From contig CBDFLP010000020.1 of assembly GCA_965249325.1 (NCBI GenBank), positions 65,428 to 129,427 of the forward strand: DNA of 64,000 bases, given 5' to 3'. Origin of the DNA: Dehalococcoidia bacterium (GTDB taxonomy: Bacteria; Chloroflexota; Dehalococcoidia; Lucifugimonadales; Australimonadaceae). This document shows positions 1 to 58,775 of the stretch, in pieces. How positions within the stretch are numbered: the first letter of the stretch is position 1; every line of letters starts with the position of its first letter. The notes under the pieces are model-generated. The model was not told where the DNA came from. It ran no database searches and saw only the letters and a program-made list of their open reading frames with translations. The position numbers and the translations under genes were made by a program.

Positions 1-467
1 TCCCTGTTGAGATTGCGATCAATGGGCGGTCCTATAGCGGTGAGGTCGAACCACGTCAGCTGCTCGTCCACTTCATCCGGGAGAACGCGGAGCTCACCGG
101 CACGAAGGTAGGATGCGACACCAGCCAGTGCGGCAGCTGTACGGTGAAGTTGGACGGCGTCGCGGCGAAGGCGTGCACGGTGCTCACCGTCCAGGCCTCG
201 GGCTCCTCGGTCACGACGATCGAGGGGCTATCGGACGGCGTCAACCTTCACCCGCTCCAGGAAGCGTTCTGGAACAACCACGGTCTGCAATGTGGCTTCT
301 GCACGCCAGGCATGATCATCGCGGCAGACGAGCTGCTGCGGACGAACCCCACGCCGACGCGCGCAGAGATACGCCACGGCCTGGAAGGGAACATCTGCCG
401 TTGTACGGGCTACCAGAACATCGTAAAGGCCGTCGAGGACGCCGCCAGCGCTGCAGGAGGCAAGTAG
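1..467 (+). CDS. [2Fe-2S]-binding small subunit of a CoxSLM / xanthine-dehydrogenase-family molybdoenzyme (5' end outside window)
   Basis: Frame is open from base 3 to TAG at 465-467. Cysteine motifs [19 protein letters not shown] and CRCTGY are typical of the two [2Fe-2S] centres. The stop lies 3 nt before the large-subunit ATG. Confidence 0.9.
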
Positions 468-6337: not shown

Positions 6338-7678
6338 GGAAGTGGTGTAACAGAAGGTCTTGGATAAAGAGAGACCACCGCGTCATCCTCACCAATGAGC
6401 AAATCGGTGAAGGAGGTGGCGACGATGGTCAAGCAGAGGATGGACCTTCTGGAGCTCGTGTGCAATCAGGCAGAGGACGCAGACCTGGACTTCTTGAGGG
6501 AGGCGATGGGCGTCCTGGTGCAGGCGATCATGGAGGCTGAGGTGGCCGTGCAGATCGGAGCGGAGCACGGCGAGCGCCCACCCGGCCGGCTGACCCAGCG
6601 CAACGGCTACCGGCCTCGCCCCTGGGACACACGGGTGGGCACGCTGGAGCTCCAGGTCCCCCGGGTGCGCGAGGGCAGTTACTTTCCGACGCTCCTCGAG
6701 CCGCGTCGGCGGAGCGAGCGAGCACTGCTCGCCGTCGTGCAGCAGGCTTATGTGGAGGGCGTCTCCACGCGGAAGGTAGACGCACTCGTGAAGTCGCTGG
6801 GCTGCGAGGGGATCTCCAAGAGCCAGGTCTCGTGTATCTGTCAGGAACTGGACCAGGTGGTGGAGTCGTTTCTGGGTCGACCGCTGGACGGAGGCCCGTA
6901 TCCCTACCTCTGGCTGGACGCCCTCACGCAGAAGGTGCGGGAGGAGGGACGGACTGTGAACGTGAGCGTGGTGGTGGCCACGCGGTGTACACGGAAGGCA
7001 AGCGTGAGATTCTTGGAATGGACGTGGGGACGAGTGAGGACGGCGCTTTCTGGTTGGCCTTCCTGCGCTCACTGGTGGCCCGTGGGCTGAGTGGCGTGCA
7101 ACTCGTCACCTCCGATGCCCACCAAGGGCTGAAGGACGCCATCGCCACCGTCTTCGGCGAGGCCTGCTGGCAGCGGTGTAGGACCCATTTCATGACCAAC
7201 CTGCTGAGCAAAGTGCCGAAGCGAGCGCAACCCTGGGTGGCGACGATGATACGCACCATCTACCAACAGCCCTCGCCGGAAGAGGTCCACGCCCAGCACC
7301 AGCGCGTGGTCGCGCAGCTCGAGGAGCGCTTCCCCGAGGCGGCAGGCCGCTTGGAGGAGGCAGGGGCGGACATCTTGGCCTTCACCGCCTTCCCCGTGGC
7401 CCACTGGAAGCAGGTGTGGTCGAACACCCGCAGGAACGGCTGAACAAGGAGATCAGGCGCCGCACGGACGTGGTGGGCATCTTCCCGAATCGGGCCGCCG
7501 TCCAGCGCCTCATCGGCGCGGTGTTGGCCGAGCAGCACGACGAGTGGCAGGTCGGCCGGCGCTATCTCGCCGCGCCTGTCTTGGACGGGGGGACCGCAGA
7601 CCGCATCGAGGACCCGCTGTTGCTGCCCGCAGGGGCGGCTTGATTAGACCCCGAGGATGACGCTCCTACACCACTTGA
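6338..7678 (+). mobile_element. IS256-family insertion sequence, decayed
   Basis: About 1.34 kb. Terminal inverted match AAGTGGTGTA (6340-6349) / TACACCACTT (7667-7676), plus a subterminal inverted match GCGTCATCCTC (6380-6390) / GAGGATGACGC (7653-7663). It encloses a mutator-type transposase. Confidence 0.8.
6395..7643 (+). pseudogene. IS256/mutator-type transposase split over three frames by two 1-nt frameshifts
   Basis: Three pieces read continuously as an IS256-type transposase only after frame changes near 6980 and 7425: ...VSVVVAT | AVYTEGKREILGMDVGTSEDGAFWLAFLRSL...DAHQGLKDAI...AHWKQVWS | [22 protein letters not shown]. Confidence 0.8.
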
Positions 7679-7699
7679 CGGGACGTGACCCCCTCCCGC

Positions 7700-7972
7700 T
7701 CCGGCATCCTGCTCCAAGCCCCCTCCCGTGCTCTATAGCTCGCCGCCGCCTATAGAGGAAGACAAGGAATGACCGAATCGTGTTTTTCACGCTTAACACG
7801 CATTCTTAATCGCGGGAAGCAGGCCGTGGCCTGCTGGAAGCCCCTCTTTAAGAAGATGAGGGTCCCCCTTTCAGCGTCATAAGGCCTTTCGTAACAAGTA
7901 AAAATCCTCATCGAGAAGCTGATTTGCCACCGAAAATCTCACCCGAAAGGGAGACCCTCCCATCTCTCTAAC
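7700..7972 (+). repeat. Structured intergenic element, copy 1 (left part disrupted by the IS256)
   Basis: Collinear with 54861-55180. Shared blocks include CCAAGCCCC..CTCTATA..TATAGAG, CGTGTTTT(T)CAC, AAGCAGGCCGTGGCCTGCT, CCCCTTTCAGCG, GAAGCTGATTTGCCACCGAA and ACCCGAAAGGGAGACCCTC. Confidence 0.8.
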
Positions 7973-8150
7973 TCTCGCCCACAGACGGGGGAAGAGGACC
8001 ATATCGTAGTGTTATACTCGTTCCACGACGATAGCCGCGCCTGTTCGGCCCGTTGGCCGACCTGCGTCGTCTCCTTGGATCCGTAGGCATTGGTGGGCCG
8101 GTCTAGGTGGAACGCCAGACCGGCGGCGGTTGTTATCCGCAGGAGGAATC

Positions 8151-9431
8151 ATGCTCAGCATCAAAGAGAACGAGGAGCTCACGCAGGTCAGCGCGGGCAC
8201 GCCGATGGGCGAGCTCATGCGGCGGTACTGGCATCCCATCGCCGCCGTCCCGGAGCTTAGCGAACGCCCCACCAAGTCCGTTCGGCTCCTAGGCGAGGAC
8301 CTCGTCCTCTACCGTGACAAGTCCGGCACGTACGGCCTCATCGACCGGTTCTGCCCCCACCGCCGCGTCGACCTCTCCTACGGTATCCCGGAGGAGCACG
8401 GCCTTCGCTGCATGTATCACGGCTGGATGATGGACGAGACCGGTCAGTGCATCGAGCAGCCATTCGAGGAGACCGTCCACCCCGACGGACGCTTCAAGGA
8501 GAAGGTCAAGATTGCGGGCTACCCTGTCGAGGCGTGCGGAGGCCTTATCTTCGCCTACCTCGGCCCGTCCCCTGCGCCGCTGCTGCCCCGCTGGGAGTGG
8601 CTGGTGGAAGAGCACGCCTTCCGGCAGGTGAACTTCCTGGAGCTGCCCTGCAACTGGCTGCAATGCCAGGAGAACTCCCTCGACCCGACGCACCTCGAAT
8701 GGCTCCACAACTACTGGGGGAGATACCAGCGCGAGCTAGCCGGCGACACGGACTCCACCGAGCGGCCTCATCTCCGGCACCAGAAGATCGGGTTCGACGT
8801 CTTCGACTACGGCATCATCAAGCGCCGCGTCTTCAGCGGTTACACCGAGGAAGACGGCGACTGGGCTGTGGGCCATCCGGTGCTCTTCCCCAACATCCTC
8901 TCGAACCCCAGCCAGTTCCGTGTGCCCATCGACGACACCCACACGCTCCACGTGGACTACGTCTCACGCAAGCTCAGCGCGGACATGCCCGCCCCGCCGC
9001 CCGAGGAGATCGAGGTGTACCACCCGCCTTTGGTCGGGGACGACGGGCGGCACATCGTCAACTACACCTTCGGGCAGGACTACATGGCCTGGGTCAGCCA
9101 AGGACCGACGGCGCGGCGCGACCGCGAGAAGTTGGGAGAGTCGGACAAGGGAATCATCCTCTTCCGGAAGCAGCTCAAGGAGCAGATGGCCATCGTGCAG
9201 GACGGCGGCGACCCGATGAACGTGCTCCGTGATCCCACCACGAACGTGTGCATAGAGCTGCCTAACGAGGCCAAGGCAAGGGCCATGGGGATGCGCTCCG
9301 GACGAGGCGCCGGCGCACCCGGGCAGAACGAAGTGCCCGCGTGGATGAACCCCGCGCCGTGGGCGGGATTCGGCATGAAGTATTACCTCGACCGCGTCAA
9401 TGAGGAGAGCGGCCTGACCCCTGCCACCTAG
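8151..9431 (+). CDS. Rieske [2Fe-2S] non-heme-iron oxygenase, alpha-subunit type
   Basis: Rieske motif CPHRRVDL...CMYHGW and mononuclear-iron motif DPTHLEWLH. AGGAGG lies 5 nt before the ATG at 8151. It is a paralog of 24896-26188. Confidence 0.85.
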   Translation: MLSIKENEELTQVSAGTPMGELMRRYWHPIAAVPELSERPTKSVRLLGEDLVLYRDKSGTYGLIDRFCPHRRVDLSYGIPEEHGLRCMYHGWMMDETGQCIEQPFEETVHPDGRFKEKVKIAGYPVEACGGLIFAYLGPSPAPLLPRWEWLVEEHAFRQVNFLELPCNWLQCQENSLDPTHLEWLHNYWGRYQRELAGDTDSTERPHLRHQKIGFDVFDYGIIKRRVFSGYTEEDGDWAVGHPVLFPNILSNPSQFRVPIDDTHTLHVDYVSRKLSADMPAPPPEEIEVYHPPLVGDDGRHIVNYTFGQDYMAWVSQGPTARRDREKLGESDKGIILFRKQLKEQMAIVQDGGDPMNVLRDPTTNVCIELPNEAKARAMGMRSGRGAGAPGQNEVPAWMNPAPWAGFGMKYYLDRVNEESGLTPAT

Positions 9432-24895: not shown

Positions 24896-26188
24896 ATGCT
24901 CAGCGCACAGGACAATGAACGGTTGGCCCACGTCGGCCCTGGAACGGAATTGGGGACGCTGATGCGTCGGTATTGGATGCCCTTCCTGCTATCGGAGGAC
25001 ATATCCAGCGCCGACAGTGACCCCGTTCGGGTCAAGCTCTTGGGAGAGAGCCTCGTGGCGTTCAGGAACACCGCCGGTCAGGTGGGCCTGGTCGACCGGC
25101 TCTGCGCCCACCGCAACGCCGACCTCTTCTTCGGGCGCAACGAAGAGCAAGGCCTGCGCTGCACGTACCACGGCTGGAAGTACGACATCGAGGGCAAGTG
25201 CGTGGACATGCCCTCCGAAGCTGCGGACAGCAACTTCAAGGACAAGATTCAGCTCAGGGCCTATCCGGTCAAAGAGCGTGGCGGCGTGCTCTGGACTTAC
25301 ATGGGCCCCAAGGAACAGATGCAGCCCCTGCCGGAGTTCGAGTGGGCCCGCGTCGCCGACGATCACCGCTACGTGTCCTGGAACTTCCAGGAAAACAACT
25401 ACGCTCAGGCCATCGAGGGCGGCATCGACACCGTCCACTCGGTCTACCTGCACAGCGCGATGGACTCGCACCGACGCCTCTCCGACTGGCGGGAGGCGGG
25501 CAAGGGCAGCGGCGACGTGGCGATGATGTACCGAACGCGCGAGAACCCGCCCAAGCTCCAAGCGCTCGAAACCGACTTCGGCCTCATCATCGGCGGCAAG
25601 TACCCCGGCGACGAGGTCCAGGACTACTGGCGGTTCAACCTGTTCTGGATGCCCTTCTACACCGCGCCTCCAGGCGGCGGCAGCCAGAAGATGATGCACG
25701 CCTTCGTCCCTGTTGACGACGTAACAACGGCCCGCTGGTGCTTCTCTTGGAGCACAACCGGCAGGCCGCTCGCGGCCAGGCAGGTCGCCGACCTCCGCAA
25801 GGGACAGGGAGTGCACGCGCAGACCATCCCCGGGACGCACTGGCCGGTCCGCAACAAGCGGAACGACTACCTCATCGACCGTAACGAACAGCGGCACTAC
25901 ACCTTCACAGGCATCAAGGGCACCGGCGAGCAGGACTTCTCCGTTCAGGAAGGAATGGGCGAAGTCTCCGATCGGACTCGCGAGCACCTGGGCGTGACGG
26001 ACATCGGCATCATCGCAATGCGGCGCATGCTGCTCAGGTCGGCCGCAGGCATCAAGGAGGGCGTCGAGCCTCCCTCTGCGTCCAATGCCGACGCCTACCG
26101 CGTCCGTCCCGGCGAAACGATGATTCCCAGCGACGCCGACTGGACCGCCCACGACAACCTCAAGAAGGCAATCGCGGCCACCTACTAG
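24896..26188 (+). CDS. Rieske [2Fe-2S] non-heme-iron oxygenase, alpha-subunit type (paralog of 8151-9431)
   Basis: Rieske motif CAHRNADL...CTYHGW, iron motif DTVHSVYLH, and an AGGAGG RBS. Confidence 0.85.
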   Translation: MLSAQDNERLAHVGPGTELGTLMRRYWMPFLLSEDISSADSDPVRVKLLGESLVAFRNTAGQVGLVDRLCAHRNADLFFGRNEEQGLRCTYHGWKYDIEGKCVDMPSEAADSNFKDKIQLRAYPVKERGGVLWTYMGPKEQMQPLPEFEWARVADDHRYVSWNFQENNYAQAIEGGIDTVHSVYLHSAMDSHRRLSDWREAGKGSGDVAMMYRTRENPPKLQALETDFGLIIGGKYPGDEVQDYWRFNLFWMPFYTAPPGGGSQKMMHAFVPVDDVTTARWCFSWSTTGRPLAARQVADLRKGQGVHAQTIPGTHWPVRNKRNDYLIDRNEQRHYTFTGIKGTGEQDFSVQEGMGEVSDRTREHLGVTDIGIIAMRRMLLRSAAGIKEGVEPPSASNADAYRVRPGETMIPSDADWTAHDNLKKAIAATY

Positions 26189-26216
26189 GCGCTGCGGTCA
26201 TCAGTTGAGGAAAAGA

Positions 26217-26277
26217 GCCCCCAATCCGTTCGCGCTAGCCTATCGAAGGACTTCCGAACGGATTGGGGGCGTTGTTT
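26217..26277. terminator. Bidirectional intrinsic-terminator-like hairpin between convergent genes
   Basis: 16-bp perfect stem GCCCCCAATCCGTTCG / CGAACGGATTGGGGGC. An A-run precedes it and GTTGTTT follows. Confidence 0.6.
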
Positions 26278-26890
26278 AAGAGGCGCTCGCCGGCGTTGGC
26301 GATTCGAGCTTGTATGGAATCATCTCTGGCCCGCCGGCCCTGCCGCGCACCTCGCCGGTCTCCAGGTTGTAGTTGTGCTGCACAGCCTCGCCGGGCCTCT
26401 CGCTCCGCACGATGACGGCGACGCTGCGCTCTCCCACCGTGATCTCCTGATGCGCCTGGAACGGGGGCACGACGTCCACGTCGCCGACCTCGATATGGAA
26501 GCTTCCCTCTTGGACGACCTCCACCGGCTCCTCGTAGTCGTCCCGGGTGCGGCGGTAGCGGTTGATCTCTTCCGTTCCCTGCACGAGGCCGTACAGCGTC
26601 CATATCCGTCCGTGGTCATGGACACTGGAGCGGTGTCCTCCCTCCTTGGCCATCGCGCTGACGATGAAGCCATGGTCGGGGTCCTCGTAGAAGAGGAGAT
26701 TGCCGGTCCGGTCGCGCCCCGAACTTGTCCGGTCCGTTGCGGGCCAGTTTCTCGCGTGCTGCTGCACCGCCGGGTCGGCGACCAGGTCGCGCATCAGCTC
26801 GCCCGTCCTAGTCCAGCGCTCGTCGTCGCTCAGGTCCTGAGCGCACAGCGCGCGCACCTCGGTTACGAATCTCTCTGCCGCTTCGAGCAT
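26276..26890 (-). CDS. Cupin protein, cysteine-dioxygenase-type-I-like
   Basis: SVHDHGRIWTLYGLV...PPFQAHQ cupin core, with AGGAGG before the ATG at 26890. Confidence 0.55.
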   Translation of the reverse strand: MLEAAERFVTEVRALCAQDLSDDERWTRTGELMRDLVADPAVQQHARNWPATDRTSSGRDRTGNLLFYEDPDHGFIVSAMAKEGGHRSSVHDHGRIWTLYGLVQGTEEINRYRRTRDDYEEPVEVVQEGSFHIEVGDVDVVPPFQAHQEITVGERSVAVIVRSERPGEAVQHNYNLETGEVRGRAGGPEMIPYKLESPTPASAS

Positions 26891-26951
26891 TGCCGTCCTC
26901 CTGAGCAACATTTCCCGTTCCCTTGGGGCTAGTGGAGATTCGCCGCCGGTC

Positions 26952-28049
26952 CTAGATGCCGTATAGCGTTCGCGGGTTGTCCCACAGCACCTTGGCCTTC
27001 GCCTCGTCGCTCACGTCGTCCATGTCCATGAACACGCGGATCGCGTTCATCGCGCTGGAGACGTCCGTGTGCCCGTAGTCCGTCCCAATCAGCAGGTTGT
27101 CATCGCCCCCGTGCTTCAACACGAAGGGGATGTCGTCCGATATCTCGCAGGTGACGTAGACGTTGAAATGCTTGAGCACGTTCTCGGGCGGCGGCCCTAG
27201 GTTTCGAGCGATGAACCGTTGCCGCACTTCCCGCACAATCCAGGGGACCCAGTTGGATGAGGCCTCGACGAACCCCCAACGGAGCGTCGGGAAACGCTCC
27301 GGCGCCTCGCTCATCATCAGTATCCCGCAGTGCATGACCGTGGGCACGCGGAACGGTGTGAAGCCTCCGCTCCGGTCGAACGGCGAACGCAGCATCTGCA
27401 GCATCGCGTCGCTGCCGTTCGAGATGTGGATGGCTACGGCGAGGTCGAGCTTCTCGGCTTCCTCGTACAGAGGATAGAAGTAGGGGTCGACCAGCATGCG
27501 GCCGAGCTCCATGGGCCGGAGCGCAATCGCCGCCGCGCCGTGCTCTTTGGCGTAGCGGACCTGCTCGACGGCGGACTGGATGTCTAGGGTCGGCATCACG
27601 GCGCACCACCGCAGGCGGCCGCCGCTCTGATTCCAGACGTCAGCCATCCATCGGTTCCAGCTTCCGCAGAGCGCCACGTCCGCCTCGGGAACGTCCGTCA
27701 CCGGCTCTATCCACATCGTGTTGTGGAGCACCTGCACGTCGATGCCGAGCTCATCCATGTGGCGGAGCCGCTGCGCGACGTCGGACAGCTCGCGGGAGTC
27801 CTGGGTCGAGACTAGGTCGCGCCCGACCTGGCCGGAGAGCTTCCGTAGCTGCTCCTCCGTCGGAACCGCGTTGCGGTGGCCTCTGACCTTCCCGCCGATC
27901 ACCCAGTGCGCCTGGTTGGGGTTGTCAGGGTTCACGAACAACTTGGGCCTGAACCGCTCCTCGTGCGGGAGAAGGTAGTCCCACGTGTGCTCCGACTCGA
28001 TGACATGAGCGTCACTGTCGACGATTCTTGTCTTGGCGAGTGTGGCCAT
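26952..28049 (-). CDS. Amidohydrolase-2 family metal-dependent hydrolase/decarboxylase (ACMSD/LigW-like)
   Basis: N-terminal IVDSDAHVIESEHTWDYL and C-terminal GTDYGHTD motifs. Paralog of 35384-36541. Confidence 0.8.
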   Translation of the reverse strand: MATLAKTRIVDSDAHVIESEHTWDYLLPHEERFRPKLFVNPDNPNQAHWVIGGKVRGHRNAVPTEEQLRKLSGQVGRDLVSTQDSRELSDVAQRLRHMDELGIDVQVLHNTMWIEPVTDVPEADVALCGSWNRWMADVWNQSGGRLRWCAVMPTLDIQSAVEQVRYAKEHGAAAIALRPMELGRMLVDPYFYPLYEEAEKLDLAVAIHISNGSDAMLQMLRSPFDRSGGFTPFRVPTVMHCGILMMSEAPERFPTLRWGFVEASSNWVPWIVREVRQRFIARNLGPPPENVLKHFNVYVTCEISDDIPFVLKHGGDDNLLIGTDYGHTDVSSAMNAIRVFMDMDDVSDEAKAKVLWDNPRTLYGI

Positions 28050-28106
28050 GAGCGTTCCCCTTTGAGGCCTTTGCCTAGCTGCGCGCCAGTCCGTTCGTGA
28101 GATTCA

Positions 28107-28147
28107 ATAGGCCCAGGGCGAGCGGATTGGGAACGCCCTGGGCCTAT
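28107..28147 (-). terminator. Hairpin downstream of the PhtD-like gene
   Basis: 14-bp perfect stem ATAGGCCCAGGGCG / CGCCCTGGGCCTAT. The T-tract on the minus strand is weak. Confidence 0.4.
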
Positions 28148-28177
28148 GCTCTTTCTCCTAAGCTAGTCTCCCGCTCG

Positions 28178-29212
28178 TCAGAGGGTGAGGGTGATGGGCG
28201 CGAACATCTCCTCGATATTGGCTCGCTTCTTTGTCAGCCCCTGCTCATGGGAATAGTCGATGAGGGTGTTCAGCATCGCCTCGTTGGCCTTCACGCCGTA
28301 GGGGTACGGGTCGCTGCCGAACGTCGCTCGCGTTTGCTGCATGTACTCGGGCCCGAAGACTAGGTCGGTGGGCATCCGCTGCCGCAGCGTCCGAACCGCT
28401 AGGTCCTTTGCCTGGACGAAGGCGTTGTAGAGGTTCAGCGCCACCCACGGGTACTCCCGGTATACGTCGCCCCTGATCACGTAGGTGTGGTTCGCCGGGA
28501 TGAACCCATGCTCCTTGAAGAACCTCGAGCCCTCCGCGATCCGGTCGGGGAACAGCGGCTTGATCTTGCTCAGGTCGCCCTGGCCTCGTATCCGCCATGA
28601 GCGGTCGACCAGGTTCGGACCCTGACCGCCGGGCTCGGCGACCGCCGCCGGATTCACCGACGCGACGTCGAGCTTGTTGGCCAGCAGCATCGAAGAGAGG
28701 CTTTCGTCCGGGGGAATTCGTTGGAACGAGATGCCTTCCTGCGGCTCGAAGCCCGTTGCCCCGCCGTGGCTCATCTCCTCCGTCCGCTCCATGAACCAGT
28801 CCACCTTGAATTGGGAGACGCCGTGGTCGTGCTCGATGATGCCGCGCATCCAAAGCGCCGCGGTCTGCTGGTACTCCCCGACCCCGATGCGCTTGCCCAC
28901 CACGTCGCTGGGCTTCTCGATGCCCGAGTCCGTGTGGTAGTGCAGGTTCATGTGCATGAAGCTGCGGTGCGGGAACACGGGAATCGCGATCCAGTCCGCG
29001 CCCTGCTCTCGCGAGATCAGGTACGACGAGATTGACAGCTCGTGCACCTGAAACTCGTGGAAGTTCAGATGGCGCCACGCGCCCTCGGACATTCCCCCTT
29101 CGGTGTGCACCAGTTCGATGCCCTCGGGCTGGACCCGTCCATCGACCAATGACGCCACCCGGTCGCTTACGGAAGTCATGAAGCTGAGTCGAAGTTTCGG
29201 CTTACTGACCAT
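28178..29212 (-). CDS. 4,5-dihydroxyphthalate-decarboxylase-like (PhtD / NMT1-fold) protein
   Basis: N-terminus KLRLSF...SDRVASLVDGRVQPEGIEL...EFQVHELSISSYL matches the PhtD-type pattern. Confidence 0.6.
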   Translation of the reverse strand: MVSKPKLRLSFMTSVSDRVASLVDGRVQPEGIELVHTEGGMSEGAWRHLNFHEFQVHELSISSYLISREQGADWIAIPVFPHRSFMHMNLHYHTDSGIEKPSDVVGKRIGVGEYQQTAALWMRGIIEHDHGVSQFKVDWFMERTEEMSHGGATGFEPQEGISFQRIPPDESLSSMLLANKLDVASVNPAAVAEPGGQGPNLVDRSWRIRGQGDLSKIKPLFPDRIAEGSRFFKEHGFIPANHTYVIRGDVYREYPWVALNLYNAFVQAKDLAVRTLRQRMPTDLVFGPEYMQQTRATFGSDPYPYGVKANEAMLNTLIDYSHEQGLTKKRANIEEMFAPITLTL

Positions 29213-29241
29213 TGCTCTCCTCCTGTTGTGTCCGTCTTTCC

Positions 29242-29269
29242 GTCATCCCCGCGCCGGAGAAATCTCGCC
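29242..29269. repeat. REP-like hairpin repeat, degenerate copy
   Basis: GTCATCCCCGCGCCGGAGAAATCTCGCC lies in the 100-nt gap between the PhtD-like and LigB-like genes. Confidence 0.5.
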
Positions 29270-29313
29270 CTTGCTCCTTCTCCCGTCCGCGAGGGAGGGG
29301 ATGGCGCAAGGGG

Positions 29314-30312
29314 CTAGACCCACTCGGCGAATCCCATGGCGCAGCCGTTTCCTGCCTCTGTCCGGTAGCAGGGAACGTAGTCCACCATGTCCATCGTGAG
29401 GCCGCCGTTCGACATCGCGCCCGCGAGCGCGATCCAGTTCTTGATCTCAGAGGTGCCGACGCGGAAGCGCGCGTCGGGGTAGTCCGTGAGCTTCGCGACA
29501 TCGTCGTGCTTCAAGCCCTCGATGATCCTCGCGTCCAGGTCCTCTTCGATGACCGTGTGGCTCAGGCCGCCCGAGGCGAAGATGGCGACGCGCTTGTCCG
29601 TGTCCCACTCCTCGATCGCCTTGCGGAGGGTCTGGCCGAACCTGTAGCAGCGTGCCGCTTTGGGCGCGTTCGGTGGGTAGTAGGTGTTGACCAGCACCGG
29701 CACGTTCGGCGTCACCACGTTGTTCATCAGCCGCCGGTAGACGTAGTAGAAGGCGTGGCCGATGGCCCCCTCGCCGTCGCGGCCCGGCGGGAGCTTGCTC
29801 GACCGGGCGACGTCGAACTCGTTCTCGATGAACGTCTCGATGAGGTACTCGCCGAGCGCCGCGTCGGTCGGATGGGTCACCCGCGCGGCAGGCCGCCTTG
29901 CAAACGCCGGGTCGCTCAGGTCGGCGCGGGCTCCTCCGGGGTTGGGCGCGTCGTCCACGCCGCCGCCGTAGTAGATGGACAGCGCGGGCATGTTCTCATC
30001 GCTGAACGACTCTTTCTGATCGTCGCCGAGGATGATGCACACGTCGGGAGCTATGTCGGCGACCGTCTGCTCCAGGTGCGTGATGGCGGTCTGACACGCA
30101 TCCCAGCGGGTCTTGAACTTCTCTTCGGTGCACTCCTTCTCGAAGTGGTCGCCCGCCCGGAGCTCCGCGAGCTCTCCGAAGGAGTAGGTCTTGCCCTCGA
30201 ACCAGTGGACTGGCTGAGAGCGGCCCCGGTCTCCATAGGTGCGCCATGTTTCAGGCGGCATTTCCAACTGCGGCGCATGAGAGGACGCCATTCCAAGAAC
30301 GATTTGTGCCAT
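29314..30312 (-). CDS. Class III extradiol ring-cleavage dioxygenase, LigB family
   Basis: MASSHAPQ, ASGGLSH and GTSEIKNWI motifs, with GGAGG before the ATG at 30312. Confidence 0.8.
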   Translation of the reverse strand: MAQIVLGMASSHAPQLEMPPETWRTYGDRGRSQPVHWFEGKTYSFGELAELRAGDHFEKECTEEKFKTRWDACQTAITHLEQTVADIAPDVCIILGDDQKESFSDENMPALSIYYGGGVDDAPNPGGARADLSDPAFARRPAARVTHPTDAALGEYLIETFIENEFDVARSSKLPPGRDGEGAIGHAFYYVYRRLMNNVVTPNVPVLVNTYYPPNAPKAARCYRFGQTLRKAIEEWDTDKRVAIFASGGLSHTVIEEDLDARIIEGLKHDDVAKLTDYPDARFRVGTSEIKNWIALAGAMSNGGLTMDMVDYVPCYRTEAGNGCAMGFAEWV

Positions 30313-30382: not shown

Positions 30383-30727
30383 GGACCCTCTCTCTAACCC
30401 TTCCTCGGGCTTGGGTTCAAGAAGCCGAAAATGAGGAGCAAAGCAGCTTCTTGGTGAGGGTTTTTACTCGTAAGGGTCTGAAGTCTGTGTCGCTGAAAGG
30501 GGTACTTTCTGTTTCTTGATCGCGGGAAGCAGGCCGTGGCCTGCTAAACAGCCCCGATTAAGAAACAGAATTAAATGTGAAAACACGATTAAGTCATTGG
30601 CTCTCTCTATGAGATGTCGGCGAGTTATAGGGCGCGGGAGAGGGCTTGGGGCGGTATGTCGGAGTGGGGCCATCCCATCCAGGGTACCGTAGGGGGGTGG
30701 CTGGGGTAAGGGGCAAGTGTCGCGGTC
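30383..30727 (-). repeat. Structured intergenic element, copy 2 (reverse orientation, core flipped relative to flanks)
   Basis: Its reverse complement is collinear with 54861-55180 (GACCGCGACACTTGCCCCTTACCCCAGCC...GGTACCCTGGATGGGATGGC...CATAGAGAGAG...CGTGTTTTCAC...CCCCTTTCAGCGACAC...CAAGAAGCTG). The exception is the central 32-40 bp, which reads in the opposite sense. Confidence 0.85.
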
Positions 30728-30846: not shown

Positions 30847-30962
30847 GGCGCCCGGCTGCACGGCGGAGCGTCATCGCCGGCGGAATCTCGCCGCGATTCA
30901 GAGCTAGTGGACAGGCAGCCCAACCAGGAGTCGCCCATCTATTGCATCAAAGGGTTCGTCGG

Positions 30963-31487
30963 ATGCGTCTAGATCGGCGGAAGCTCGTCGGCAGCGTGAT
31001 GTTTCTTGCGGCGGCGGTCGCAGCGCTCCTCATCGTGTTCGGCCCGTGGCGTGCGGCCCAGGAGCCTTCTCAGGCTGATGTGGTCGTCGCCCTCGATACT
31101 CTGGCGGCGGAGCTCGAGGCTGACAGACCGCCGTTCCCGGACGCGTGGGCCAAGCGCCTTCAGGATTACCTCGAGGCTCATCCTGCATTCTTCGGCTCTG
31201 CCGCTGCGTTGCTTGACCGCTCCGGCAACGTTACTGCCAGCCCTTATGTCTATCGCACGGCTGACGGCTACGCTTCCTTAGACCTCGCCGTGCCTTCGTA
31301 TAGCATCGAGGGGCAGGAGTGGCTCACAGCGCCGCTCGAAGCGAACGCGGGAGTTTGGACGGCTCCCTATTTCGACGCCGGCGGCGGTGAGATATGGATG
31401 GTCACGCGCTCTGTGCCAGTGCGCGATGCCGATGGCATTTTCGCCATCATCACGACCGACTTGCCCGTGGATGCCCCGACCCAATAA
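30963..31487 (+). CDS. Membrane-anchored Cache-like extracytoplasmic sensor domain protein with no output domain
   Basis: An N-terminal TM (LVGSVMFLAAAVAALLIVF) is followed by a PDC/Cache-like pattern (YVY...W..PYFD..GG..MVT.S.PV.D..G...I.T.DL). Confidence 0.45.
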   Translation: MRLDRRKLVGSVMFLAAAVAALLIVFGPWRAAQEPSQADVVVALDTLAAELEADRPPFPDAWAKRLQDYLEAHPAFFGSAAALLDRSGNVTASPYVYRTADGYASLDLAVPSYSIEGQEWLTAPLEANAGVWTAPYFDAGGGEIWMVTRSVPVRDADGIFAIITTDLPVDAPTQ

Positions 31488-31496
31488 TGTGCGAAT

Positions 31497-31550
31497 ACCC
31501 CTAGGCGGGACTCGAACCCGCAACCTTCGTCTTGCGACAGAGGCGCTCTT
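31497..31550 (-). other. tRNA 3'-half-like fragment (T-arm plus acceptor 3' strand); no full cloverleaf found
   Basis: The minus strand reads ...TGTCGCAAGACGAAGGTT GCGGG TTCGAGT CCCGC CTAGGGG T. The T-arm is perfect with a TTCGAGT loop, but no complementary 5' acceptor strand, D-arm or anticodon arm could be folded upstream. Confidence 0.35.
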
Positions 31551-31643
31551 CGGCAAAGTCAGCTCGGAGTTGAGACTTAGGGCGACGCCGTTCACGGCGA
31601 AGTATCTTGACTGAAGGACCGACGGCGCTGGAGTTGTTCGAGC

Positions 31644-36692: not shown

Positions 36693-37193
36693 CTAATGCC
36701 GAGGACGGCGGCGGCGCGACTGCCGGCGCCGAAGCAGTCTCGTCTCCCCCGGAGGGGCGGGAGGAGCTTCTAGGAAGACCACGCTCTCCGGGGGGCTCGG
36801 ACGCTCCTCCGTTGCGTCGGCTGCGTCGGCGTTCGCCGCAGCGCCGCCGCCTATCCCCTGGGAGGGCGGCAACGGCGGAGCGGGCGGTTGGTGGTACAGC
36901 ACCGCCAGTAGCACGAAGAGCGGGTGGATGAAGATGGCTTGGAGCGCCATCTGTCCAACGGCGAGCACGACCGCCCCGATGCTCCAGCGGAAAACCGACA
37001 TTCGCTTCCAGCGGGCGATCAGCGGGACCATGCCGACAGGCCCGAACAGGGCCGTGACGTAGACAGGCTGGTCGTATGGGGTCCCGCCGAAGATGAGCAG
37101 AAGGCCGACCAGCAAGGCGAGCCCAGTCAGGATCGCCAAGGGCCACGCCGCGAGCGCCGGCATATTGAACAGGAATGGCAACCGTCTACCCAT
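36693..37193 (-). CDS. Hypothetical membrane protein with a Pro/Ala-rich C-terminal tail
   Basis: Four hydrophobic helices in the first 100 aa. The tail is low-complexity and may partly be read-through. Confidence 0.4.
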   Translation of the reverse strand: MGRRLPFLFNMPALAAWPLAILTGLALLVGLLLIFGGTPYDQPVYVTALFGPVGMVPLIARWKRMSVFRWSIGAVVLAVGQMALQAIFIHPLFVLLAVLYHQPPAPPLPPSQGIGGGAAANADAADATEERPSPPESVVFLEAPPAPPGETRLLRRRQSRRRRPRH

Positions 37194-37240
37194 CGCTGTA
37201 AGCCTACATTAAGGGGAGCGTCGGCGCCTCTAGAGCGCGC

Positions 37241-37729
37241 TCATTCGGTAGTGACTTGATTGTTGGGGACAGCTGGCTTGCCGATAGAAATCGCGAAACG
37301 ATACGCGGAGGTCGCCATCCCCTCCCTCTCGTAAAATCGATGAGCGTCCTTCCGATGCATGGCTGAGTCAAGCTCGAGCCGTTGACACGACTCAGCCTCG
37401 GCCCAACGAATCAGCCATTCGAGGAGATGGGCGCCATGCCCCTTGGACCGCTCGCTATCGAGGGTGACTAAATCGTCAACGTTTAGAAAGCGCCCGGACC
37501 CAAGCGTTTCGAGGATCCGAAAGCCGGCTACCGCTACTGGATGTCTCTGACTCTCAACATACGCTAGGCGATAGCCAGCCTCTTGCTGGGAACGAACTCG
37601 GGAAAGGAAGGAGTCCAGAGTGAGGTGGGGACGTAACTGGCGCATAACGGCGAAGCACGCCGCAATTTCTTGATCTGACTCCGCGAGTTGGATGTTCACT
37701 GAGAGTTCCTTCGTTGTCGAGCAACCCAT
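37241..37729 (-). CDS. GNAT-family N-acetyltransferase; start uncertain
   Basis: Acetyl-CoA motif LVTLDSERSKGHGAHLLEWL and C-terminal AHRFYEREGM. Confidence 0.75.
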   Translation of the reverse strand: MGCSTTKELSVNIQLAESDQEIAACFAVMRQLRPHLTLDSFLSRVRSQQEAGYRLAYVESQRHPVAVAGFRILETLGSGRFLNVDDLVTLDSERSKGHGAHLLEWLIRWAEAESCQRLELDSAMHRKDAHRFYEREGMATSAYRFAISIGKPAVPNNQVTTE

Positions 37730-37786
37730 TCCGACCGGACTGCTTGCTGCCCGGTCGCAGGCGTATTGAAGACGAAGCACGTGCGC

Positions 37787-39190
37787 TCACTCCAAAGGCG
37801 GGCGCCGGTCGTGCCAGTCGGTGCGCTCTTGGTAGGCGTGGCCTATCTGGAACAGGGTGTTCTCGGCGAAGGGACGTCCCGCAATCTGGAGGCTGAGCGG
37901 CAGGCCTGCTCCCGTGAAACCGATGGGGACCGCCATGGCGGGGACGCCGGACAGGTTGAACGGGCTGCGGTGGGAGCGCAGGCCGAAGAACTGGCTCATC
38001 ACCGCTTGCTTCGACGTCAGCCCCGTCTCCGTAGCGATTGGCGGCGCGCCCGCCGCTTGCGCCGGCGTCACGATGACGTCGAAACGCCCCAGCTCGCGCA
38101 TCACGTCCCGGCGCATCAGCGTGCGGAACCGCGCCAGCTTGGCGTAGGCCGTCCCGGGGATGAGGCTTGCCGCCATGAGGCGGCGTCGGGTCGCGAAATC
38201 GTAGTCTTGGGGCCGCTCCCGCAGCCACTTGCGGTGGGTGTGCGCCGCCTCGACGTCCGACAGCGTGTTCGCGATCAGCCCGCCTCTCTCGAAGAGCGGC
38301 AGCGAGGCGTCGGCCACGCGCGCGCCCGCCTTCTCCAGCACGTGCATCGCGGCGTCGACTGCCGCAGCCGCCTCGTCGCTCGCCATCCCGTTGTCGATGC
38401 TCTCACGGATGACCCCGACCCGCACCCCCTGCAGGTCGTCGCGCGGCTCGAACGGCGTCACGGGCCGGTTCGAGGTGTAGGCGTCCTTCGGGTCGTGGCC
38501 GGCGATGGACTGATAGACCATCGCCGCGTCGGCGACGGTCTTGGTCATCGGGCCTATCGTGTCCATGAACCAGGCCATGGGGAAGGCGCCGTGGCGGCTC
38601 ACCGCTCCCCAGGTGGGGCGAAGACCCACGATGCCGCACCAGCCCGCCGGACCCCTGATCGAGCCCGCCGTGTCCCCGCCCAGTGCTGCCGCGCAGAGCG
38701 ACGCGGCGACCGCCACGCCCGAGCCGCTGCTGGACTGGCCGGCCTGCCGTGTCTCGTCCCACGGGTTGTGGGGCACGCCGAAGGGGTGCTGGACGTTCCC
38801 TCCGAGCGCGTACTCGCTGAGGTTGAGCTTGCCCAGCAGCACGGCACCGGCCTCACGCAGGCGTCCGATGGCGGTCGCGTCCTCGGTCGCGACGTAGTCG
38901 ACGATGTTGCCGCCGAGGGTCGTCCGCAGGCCCTTGGCGTCGAACTGGTCTTTCACGGCGACAGGCAAGCCGTGGAGCGGCCCGCGCCCAGCGCCGCGCG
39001 ACAGCTCGGCCTCGGCGTTCTTGGCCGCTTTTAGCGAGCCTTCCTCATCGAGGGTGATGTAGGCGTTCAGCCGCTCGAACCGCTTCGCCCTATCGATGAA
39101 CGCTTGCGTCAGCTCGACAGGCGAGAGCTTGCCGCTCGTGATGAGCGCGGACAACTCCGTTGCCGGCTTGAGGGTCAGGTCATCGGCCAT
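37787..39190 (-). CDS. Amidase-signature enzyme (GatA/AtzE-like)
   Basis: PVAVKDQF (Lys), GQSSSGSGVAVA and GGDTAGSIRGPA amidase-signature motifs. Confidence 0.85.
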   Translation of the reverse strand: MADDLTLKPATELSALITSGKLSPVELTQAFIDRAKRFERLNAYITLDEEGSLKAAKNAEAELSRGAGRGPLHGLPVAVKDQFDAKGLRTTLGGNIVDYVATEDATAIGRLREAGAVLLGKLNLSEYALGGNVQHPFGVPHNPWDETRQAGQSSSGSGVAVAASLCAAALGGDTAGSIRGPAGWCGIVGLRPTWGAVSRHGAFPMAWFMDTIGPMTKTVADAAMVYQSIAGHDPKDAYTSNRPVTPFEPRDDLQGVRVGVIRESIDNGMASDEAAAAVDAAMHVLEKAGARVADASLPLFERGGLIANTLSDVEAAHTHRKWLRERPQDYDFATRRRLMAASLIPGTAYAKLARFRTLMRRDVMRELGRFDVIVTPAQAAGAPPIATETGLTSKQAVMSQFFGLRSHRSPFNLSGVPAMAVPIGFTGAGLPLSLQIAGRPFAENTLFQIGHAYQERTDWHDRRPPLE

Positions 39191-39386
39191 CGCCGTCCTC
39201 CTCCTGGGTCAGCCAGAACACCGGCAGCGGCTCGACCGCGTCGGCATCGGCGTCTTCGAGCGCGGCGACGGCCTCGTTGATGGCGTTCACGCGATGAGTG
39301 ATCTCGTCGAGGTCCGCCGCGTCGAGGGGCGTCAAGTCGAGGGCTCGCAGCAGCGACTTCACCTCGTCAGTCGTCAGATCGGGCAT
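39180..39386 (-). CDS. Small GatC/AtzG-like (DUF4089-like) partner of the amidase
   Basis: 68 aa and acidic, with ...VEPLPVF near the C-terminus. GGAGG precedes the ATG at 39386, and the gene overlaps the amidase start by 11 nt. Confidence 0.5.
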   Translation of the reverse strand: MPDLTTDEVKSLLRALDLTPLDAADLDEITHRVNAINEAVAALEDADADAVEPLPVFWLTQEEDGDGR

Positions 39387-54860: not shown

Positions 54861-55180
54861 GACCACGACATCTGCCCCTTACCCCAGCCCTCCCGCCTGC
54901 GGTACCCTGGATGAGATGGCTCCGTTCCAGCCCCTCGCCCCAAGCCCCCCCCCGCGCGCTCTATAACGCGCCGCCGTCCCATAGAGAGAGTCAATGCTCG
55001 AATTCGTGTTTTCACGTTTAATTCGCACTCTTGATCGCAGGAAGCAGGCCGTGGCCTGCTAAGCAGCCCCGATCAAGAAGGCGAAAGTACCCCCTCCAGC
55101 GACACAAGCGCTAACCCTAAAAGCCCCATCAAGAAGCTGATTTGCTACCGAATCTCAACCCGAAAGGGAGAGACCCTCAG
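54861..55180 (+). repeat. Structured intergenic element, copy 3 (most complete)
   Basis: Collinear with copy 1 (7700-7972) and with the reverse complement of copy 2 (30383-30727). See findings. Confidence 0.85.
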
Positions 55181-55643: not shown

Positions 55644-58634
<2,991 letters not shown>

Positions 58635-58700
58635 ACCTTTCCGCTCCTCTGCTCGCTCGATTTCCCTTGATAACGCGCAAATCGTTCGGTTCTCCTATAT

Positions 58701-58775
58701 TGCGGGGTGGAGCAGTGGCAGCTCGTCGGGCTCATAACCCGAAGGTCCCAGGTTCGAGTCCTGGCCCCGCTACCA
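58701..58775 (+). tRNA. Initiator tRNA-Met (anticodon CAT)
   Basis: 75-nt cloverleaf folded by hand. Three G:C pairs close the anticodon stem (TCGGG CTCATAA CCCGA), A11:U24 is present, position 1 is unpaired with 72, and CCA is encoded. Confidence 0.85.

Follow-up and report, generated by a model that had tools for sequence, protein, structure and literature searches.

The analysed DNA, referred to here as the window, is a 64-kb stretch of a Dehalococcoidia genome with a G+C content of ~65%, in which an intergenic element of ~293 bp was present in three copies, with no fourth found in the window by the nhmmer profile of the family. The three copies, and the gene preceded by the second of them, are the following:

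7665-7929, + strand: element copy 1, found by the nhmmer family profile, with the core in the usual orientation.
30435-30726, - strand: element copy 2, matching positions 2-295 of the nhmmer profile (E 1e-76).
29314-30312, - strand: gene of a LigB-family ring-cleavage dioxygenase, assigned by Pfam PF02900, its translation and its homologues.
54862-55148, + strand: element copy 3, found by the nhmmer family profile, with the core in the usual orientation.

All three copies were located upstream of a transcription unit and in the same direction as it; the upstream position had been noted from the sequence alone before this analysis (hereafter, the sequence-only reading). Copy 1, being 5′-truncated or divergent and missing the first ~37 profile positions, adjoins a split IS256-family transposase and lies upstream of a Rieske/LigXa-type oxygenase gene (8130-9431). 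This IS256/Mutator-family transposase (6395-7443), directly upstream of the copy, appeared in two overlapping ORFs, suggesting a frameshift or a pseudogene. Copy 2 is separated by 122 nt from the start of the LigB-family dioxygenase gene, while copy 3 is flanked by a divergent COX2 gene and by the promoter that serves a solitary 23S rRNA gene. The element was also considered as an rRNA leader or promoter, which was rejected because the 23S gene has a separate promoter of its own (TTGACA-18-TATACT) downstream, 3′ of copy 3. In that region (55644-58775), the 23S rRNA gene appeared without an upstream 16S gene and without a 5S gene before tRNA-Met (58701-58775), and the same solitary arrangement was found in L092, a MAG locus orthologous to the copy-3/23S region (~93-96% identity).

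A genome collection was scanned with the 18-bp palindrome of the core, a search that returned mostly chance matches; among the matches listed, at least 11 family members were recognized in three Dehalococcoidia MAGs. Where the neighbours of these MAG loci could be called, the element was upstream of a gene and co-oriented with it in seven more cases, the downstream genes encoding an aldo/keto reductase (n = 3), a solute symporter, an amidohydrolase_2, a CoA-transferase and a bicupin. In Dehalococcoidia MAGs, the element always preceded a gene running in its own direction, mostly one of aromatic catabolism, and at least four to seven copies were seen per related genome, with three in the 64 kb of the window. 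At the gathering threshold, Rfam matched only 23S and tRNA genes in the window and the 11 loci, and no relevant match was obtained on the element at E<=10. Searches of the JGI metagenome collection with the core plus AARCA and with a core-independent 3′ motif gave no match. Furthermore, scans of the element for sigma-70 promoters and intrinsic terminators gave none, and no terminal inverted repeats were seen by eye in an alignment of 16 copies. Sites of rRNA boxA/boxB antitermination, integron attC sites and IS200/IS605 ends were also weighed as identities of the element and dropped, since their motifs do not match it and its copies stand in front of unrelated catabolic genes. The host element is an uncharacterised cassette, and our best guess is that it would be a lineage-specific, promoter-proximal or 5′-leader cassette that has spread among catabolic operons.

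Several rearrangements were observed in the neighbourhood of copy 2. Six orthologous loci lack an insertion of ~704 bp that replaces ~25 bp at 30922-31625 of the window. Within it, an ORF (30942-31487) encodes an MCP-like PDC sensor domain, and its minus strand at ~31503-31560 resembles the 3′ part of a tRNA gene, although none was called there by ARAGORN. This insertion, ~195 bp from the element, may be the relic of an integration event. In the more distant relative L117, the Rieske, ORF149, LigB and 344-aa protein genes form one co-directional cluster without the element, whereas in the window the genes of this cluster are rearranged and scattered (24896-30312 and 36873-39205), with the element at the LigB breakpoint. 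Moreover, IS481-like (rve) transposase insertions of varying extent were found beside the PTP gene in several orthologous loci (L116 819-1472, L124 833-1684 and L126 54-1769) and not in the window. The region is a rearrangement hot spot.

The sequence-only reading had described the core quasi-palindrome of copy 2 as inverted relative to its own flanks, and this was confirmed, since in the repeat search the core was direct and the flanks were inverted. In particular, the 21-mer GGAAGCAGGCCGTGGCCTGCT occurred exactly three times in the window, always on the + strand (7815, 30525 and 55040), with ~0.02 occurrences expected by chance. The 51-nt core with its inverted repeats (IRs) formed a direct repeat family (7804-7854, 30514-30564 and 55029-55079), with an identity of 94% between copies 2 and 3, while the flanks of copy 2 matched those of copies 1 and 3 as inverted repeats only. 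Copies 1 and 3, in the orientation of the element, consist of an IR, a 5-nt spacer (CRGGA), AGCAGGCC-GT-GGCCTGCT, a spacer of 8-9 nt and the second IR, and copy 2 of an IR, a 9-nt spacer (GGGCTGTTT), AGCAGGCC-AC-GGCCTGCT, a 5-nt spacer (TCCCG) and the second IR. Taken together, the 21-mer, the repeats and this anatomy show that the flip of copy 2 is correct and far beyond chance. Furthermore, the 32 nt between the IRs of copy 2 matched the corresponding stretch of its orthologs in reverse complement at every position (32/32), and the core of copy 2 scored 71 bits against the family profile on the 'wrong' strand, where the anti-orientation of every other copy scored from 17 to 43 bits. The parts of the rearranged segment are these:

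30523-30567: flipped tract, 45 nt reverse-complemented relative to the orthologous sequence (model fitting against L126).
30520-30522: junction microhomology tcg/cga, within the ancestral 9-bp IR (equally good placements against L126, anc[29..32] with resumption at anc[64..67]).
30568-30570: junction microhomology gaa/ttc, outside the ancestral IR (equally good placements against L126, anc[:16..19]).
30507-30522, + strand: left arm of the derived 16-nt IR, ttctgtttcttgatcg (sequence inspection and folding).
30555-30570, + strand: right arm of the derived 16-nt IR, cgattaagaaacagaa (sequence inspection and model fitting).

The 45-nt tract is made up of a 5-nt spacer, an 18-bp perfect palindrome, a 9-nt spacer, one IR arm and 4 nt beyond it. 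The bounding repeats that had been proposed at 30509-30522 and 30555-30568 were present, and were found to run to 16 nt with one mismatch.

The orthologous loci of copy 2 were fetched through the homologues of the LigB protein and the contigs encoding them. A total of eight loci were obtained (L116, L124-L129 and L137) from six other ENA samples, all of them collinear with the window over 26.3-30.9 kb at ~92-97% nucleotide identity, and all eight of these close strains carried the element at this place. No element was present next to LigB in two more distant lineages (protein identity, 88-89%), where the gene order also differs. The core was in the usual orientation in 8/8 orthologs, and likewise in 13/13 paralogs among the matches listed (copies 1 and 3 of the window and the 11 MAG loci), so that 21 of the 22 known family copies, among the matches listed, presented one orientation. 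Since these eight orthologs and 13 paralogs have the other state, the flip of copy 2 is derived, recent and private to the genome of the window. Across assemblies, one flipped locus was opposed to eight unflipped orthologs, including two contigs from each of two samples. The comparison of orthologs proposed earlier gave essentially the picture of one orientation per locus that the sequence-only reading had named as refuting active switching and pointing to an ancient fixed inversion, except that the inversion is recent and private to this genome.

Two further kinds of variation were observed among the family members. The central dinucleotide of the 18-bp palindrome was AC in L015 (4169-4186) and L084 (1962-1979) and AT in L035 (153-170), instead of GT, with the arms of the palindrome in the usual orientation despite these centres, which reflect either a tiny loop inversion or two transitions. 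In addition, the orthologs of copy 2 presented two alleles of the left flank, TTTCTGTCGGTGCC and TTTAATTCGCACTC (L129 2700-2770 vs. L116, L124-L128 and L137), each of which was also found in other paralogous copies. Such sharing of alleles with paralogs suggests ectopic gene conversion among the copies of the element.

With the ancestral state given by the orthologs, the junctions of the flip could be examined. In element orientation, the ancestral sequence reads ...CATTTAATTC GCAC TCTTGGTCG CGGGA AGCAGGCC GT GGCCTGCT AAACAGCCC CGATCAAGA AACA GAAAGT..., and that of the window reads ...CATTTAATTC TGTT TCTTAATCG GGGCTGTTT AGCAGGCC AC GGCCTGCT TCCCG CGATCAAGA AACA GAAAGT.... The ancestral IR, TCTTGGTCG/CGATCAAGA, was present in all orthologs and is only 9 bp long and imperfect, with a G.T mismatch. 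One junction of the flipped tract lies inside this 9-bp IR and the other 4 nt outside it, the GCAC of the ancestor having become TGTT in the window, which is the complement of the AACA on the far-side flank; the TTC...GAA of the outer junction was already in all orthologs. As one junction falls outside the ancestral IR, the 14-16-bp bounding repeats are the product of the event and not its substrate: the long IR is absent from the ancestral state and was made by the flip. The event lengthened the IR from 9 to 16 with no change of total length, and the derived hairpin is longer and more stable than the ancestral one (MFE on the element strand, -34.6 vs. -28.9 kcal/mol).

Models of the event were compared on a 100-nt anchored alignment, with ortholog L126 as the reference. 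A single template switch reproduced the window sequence with one mismatch in the 100 nt, at 30559, where the window has T and C was predicted, this being the sole base off the prediction. A reciprocal inversion with the crossover within the 9-bp IRs left 5-7 mismatches over the same 100 nt, because the change of GCAC to TGTT lies outside the IR. Moreover, 22 of the 34 differences between the window and L126 in the whole element were concentrated in the 45-nt tract, and 12 were spread over the other ~247 nt.

The flip most probably (at roughly 80%) arose by a single, fixed template-switch mutation during replication of a quasi-palindrome, as framed by Ripley's quasipalindrome model. The mutation is of a known kind, the inversion of an IR spacer with homogenisation or extension of the arms. 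Once one arm of the IR had been copied, the nascent strand would have annealed anew to the other arm, on the opposite (sister) template. Synthesis would then have run back across the 32-nt spacer, the second arm and a further 4 nt before resuming on its proper template at the 3-nt microhomology GAA/TTC. Under this path, 30520-30522 would be the point at which the polymerase left or rejoined the normal template, and 30568-30570 the second switch point. The predicted outcome is a core inverted in place, an IR extended from 9 bp (with the G.T mismatch) to 16 bp and GCAC replaced by TGTT, with one later C>T substitution at 30559. The template would most simply be the complementary strand of the locus itself, with a paralogous copy aligned through the palindrome as a variant. 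What was found at the locus agrees with such an origin in the reverse-complement derivation of the tract, the prior IR or microhomology at both switch points, the more complementary arms and the derived polarity. Against it count the base at 30559, which the switch leaves unexplained and which needs a separate substitution, and the 32-nt spacer (45-nt tract), since those of published evolutionary cases are typically far shorter, at 2-5 nt. As for its consequence, the flip may have been neutral or may have affected the downstream LigB operon. Of the two mechanisms offered by the sequence-only reading, hairpin-mediated template switching is strongly supported, and a recombinase is not, with no candidate among the ~50 window ORFs scanned.

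An unlikely alternative is a short-patch ectopic gene conversion, by which the tract would have been copied from a paralog in opposite orientation aligned through the palindromic core. The differing left-flank alleles that the orthologs have in common with paralogs (L129 vs. L116 type) suggest that conversion does occur in this family, and a donor with CGATTAAGA would also account for the residual mismatch at 30559. However, the tract equals the ancestral sequence of the locus itself at 44/45 positions, the other two copies of the window differ from it at three or more positions, and CGATTAAGAAACAG was in no known family member among the matches listed. A paralog with CGATTAAGAAACAGAA would favour ectopic templating.

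A single template switch is also preferred over a scheme of two steps, in which the left flank would first be homogenised to the right one (GCAC to TGTT, giving a 14-16-bp IR) and a homologous or illegitimate recombination between the repeats would then invert the core. This order of events is compatible with the final structure, and arm complementarity past the IR is common in paralogs, but it needs two rare events where one suffices, and the intermediate with an extended IR and an unflipped core was seen in 0/8 orthologs; we regard it as very improbable.

A programmed and reversible site-specific inversion, with a recombinase flipping the core between short IRs and thereby modulating the downstream operon, is what the inverton-like switch of the sequence-only reading amounted to. 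The segment is indeed bounded by IRs and upstream of a gene, and the family is always co-oriented with the gene downstream. In an inverton, however, IRs would bound the segment in both states and hold the crossovers, and here the long IR was found in the flipped state only, the ancestral one being a mismatched repeat of just 9 bp with one junction outside it; moreover, all but one of the 22 copies among the matches listed, including 8/8 orthologs, kept one orientation. The suggested search for an invertase was negative for tyrosine and serine recombinases in the ~50 window ORFs compared with Pfam, where the sole hit of a related kind was the split IS256-type transposase, 23 kb from copy 2. Neither a sigma-70-like promoter nor a terminator-like site was found in or beside the 45-nt tract. 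Furthermore, as the core is an 18-bp perfect palindrome, the flip would amount to a 4-bp shift for a reader of double-stranded DNA and would change little for a DNA-binding dimer. The candidate recognition repeats would be TCTTGATCG, and a recombinase acting there would refute the template switch. A switch of this kind is highly unlikely, and the inverton-like reading is not supported: what this assembly shows is most probably a fixed mutation and no programmed switch.

The least probable explanation is an artefact of assembly or consensus at a strong hairpin. In its favour, the related contigs come from long-read metagenome assemblies, some of low coverage (e.g. 6x). Against it, consensus errors do not usually take the form of an exact reverse complement of 45 nt that leaves the length unchanged and has microhomology at its junctions, and the flanks were clean, with no further difference against L126 in the 100-nt anchored segment.

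The hairpin of the element is built in three tiers. Its inner stem spans 7-8 bp, the tier around it pairs CGGG with CCCG and includes an asymmetric internal loop, and the IR forms the outermost tier. Only the invariant inner stems were recovered by RNAalifold. Past the IR, the left and right flanks of most copies complemented each other by way of sequences that varied (TTTCTGT/ACAGAAA, TTCGC/GCGAA and CATC/GGTG). The outer stem covaries in registers that are not the same throughout, demonstrable copy by copy only. Cognate flanks paired better than non-cognate ones by a permutation that ignores the relatedness of the copies (p = 0.0045). This pairing reflects either selection on the stem or its repeated re-homogenisation by template switching. 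Immediately before the event, copy 2 was a 'hybrid' with mismatched flanks, whose pairing the event restored. A reading that goes further, in which the hairpin would be a functional cis-element (a 5′-leader RNA stem or an operator) of a lineage-specific, promoter-proximal cassette driving aromatic-catabolism genes, with a core flipping recurrently by recombinase-independent template switching as a low-frequency heritable switch of LigB-operon expression, is hardly probable; if it were true, each flip would shift the 18-bp palindrome by 4 bp and swap the side of the bulge.

An inverton at this locus would have implied a new miniature regulatory switch. As the product of one template switch, copy 2 would instead be a clean natural case of this process remodelling a hairpin, with the core inverted and the stem lengthened in one step, and eight sister genomes display its ancestral state directly. 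It also calls for caution, since IRs on either side of an inverted segment can have arisen through the inversion instead of having caused it. The case is unusual only in size, its 32-nt spacer being long for this class of mutation, and is otherwise ordinary. More remains to be asked, if within a modest scope, about the ~293-bp host cassette, which precedes lignin/aromatic catabolic genes in uncultured Dehalococcoidia.

Regarding known systems, invertons such as fimS with FimB/E, hin-hix and the invertible promoters of Bacteroides resemble copy 2 in that the segment is bounded by IRs, lies upstream of a gene and was found in the opposite orientation. Unlike them, copy 2 has no recombinase among the ~50 window ORFs scanned, its IR was created by the event, and the segment is of 45 nt and devoid of a promoter, its orientation being monomorphic in 21/22 copies among the matches listed. 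The host element can be compared with the dispersed intergenic repeats that bear hairpins (REP/BIME/REPIN, Correia/CREE, ERIC, BOX and RUP), with which it shares being multi-copy, intergenic and lineage-restricted, with a strong imperfect palindrome, and also flank alleles that are mosaic, suggesting exchange among copies. In contrast to REP/BIME/REPIN-type repeats, it is ~293 bp long, with few copies and a strict orientation toward the downstream gene, and neither terminal inverted repeats nor a target-site duplication nor a RAYT-like gene was recognised in it. The closest likeness was found with published template switches (Abraham & Hazkani-Covo 2021, PMC8604942; Loytynoja & Goldman 2017, PMC5453318; Monttinen & Loytynoja 2022, PMC8794818), in which, as in copy 2, a cluster of changes is explained as one reverse-complement copy of adjacent sequence, a short imperfect IR existed beforehand, the spacer was inverted in place, and the event was length-neutral and private to a lineage. 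In yeast REG2, an arm grew from 5 to 16 bp with inversion of the spacer through intermolecular template switching (PMC8604942), as the arm of copy 2 was lengthened from 9 to 16 bp, and loop inversions have been documented in the hairpins of rRNA and miRNA (PMC8794818). Copy 2 differs from these cases, whose spacers or loops are of 2-5 nt, in that its 32-nt spacer is itself a structured quasi-palindrome and in its setting, a repeat found between genes in an uncultured lineage of Dehalococcoidia.
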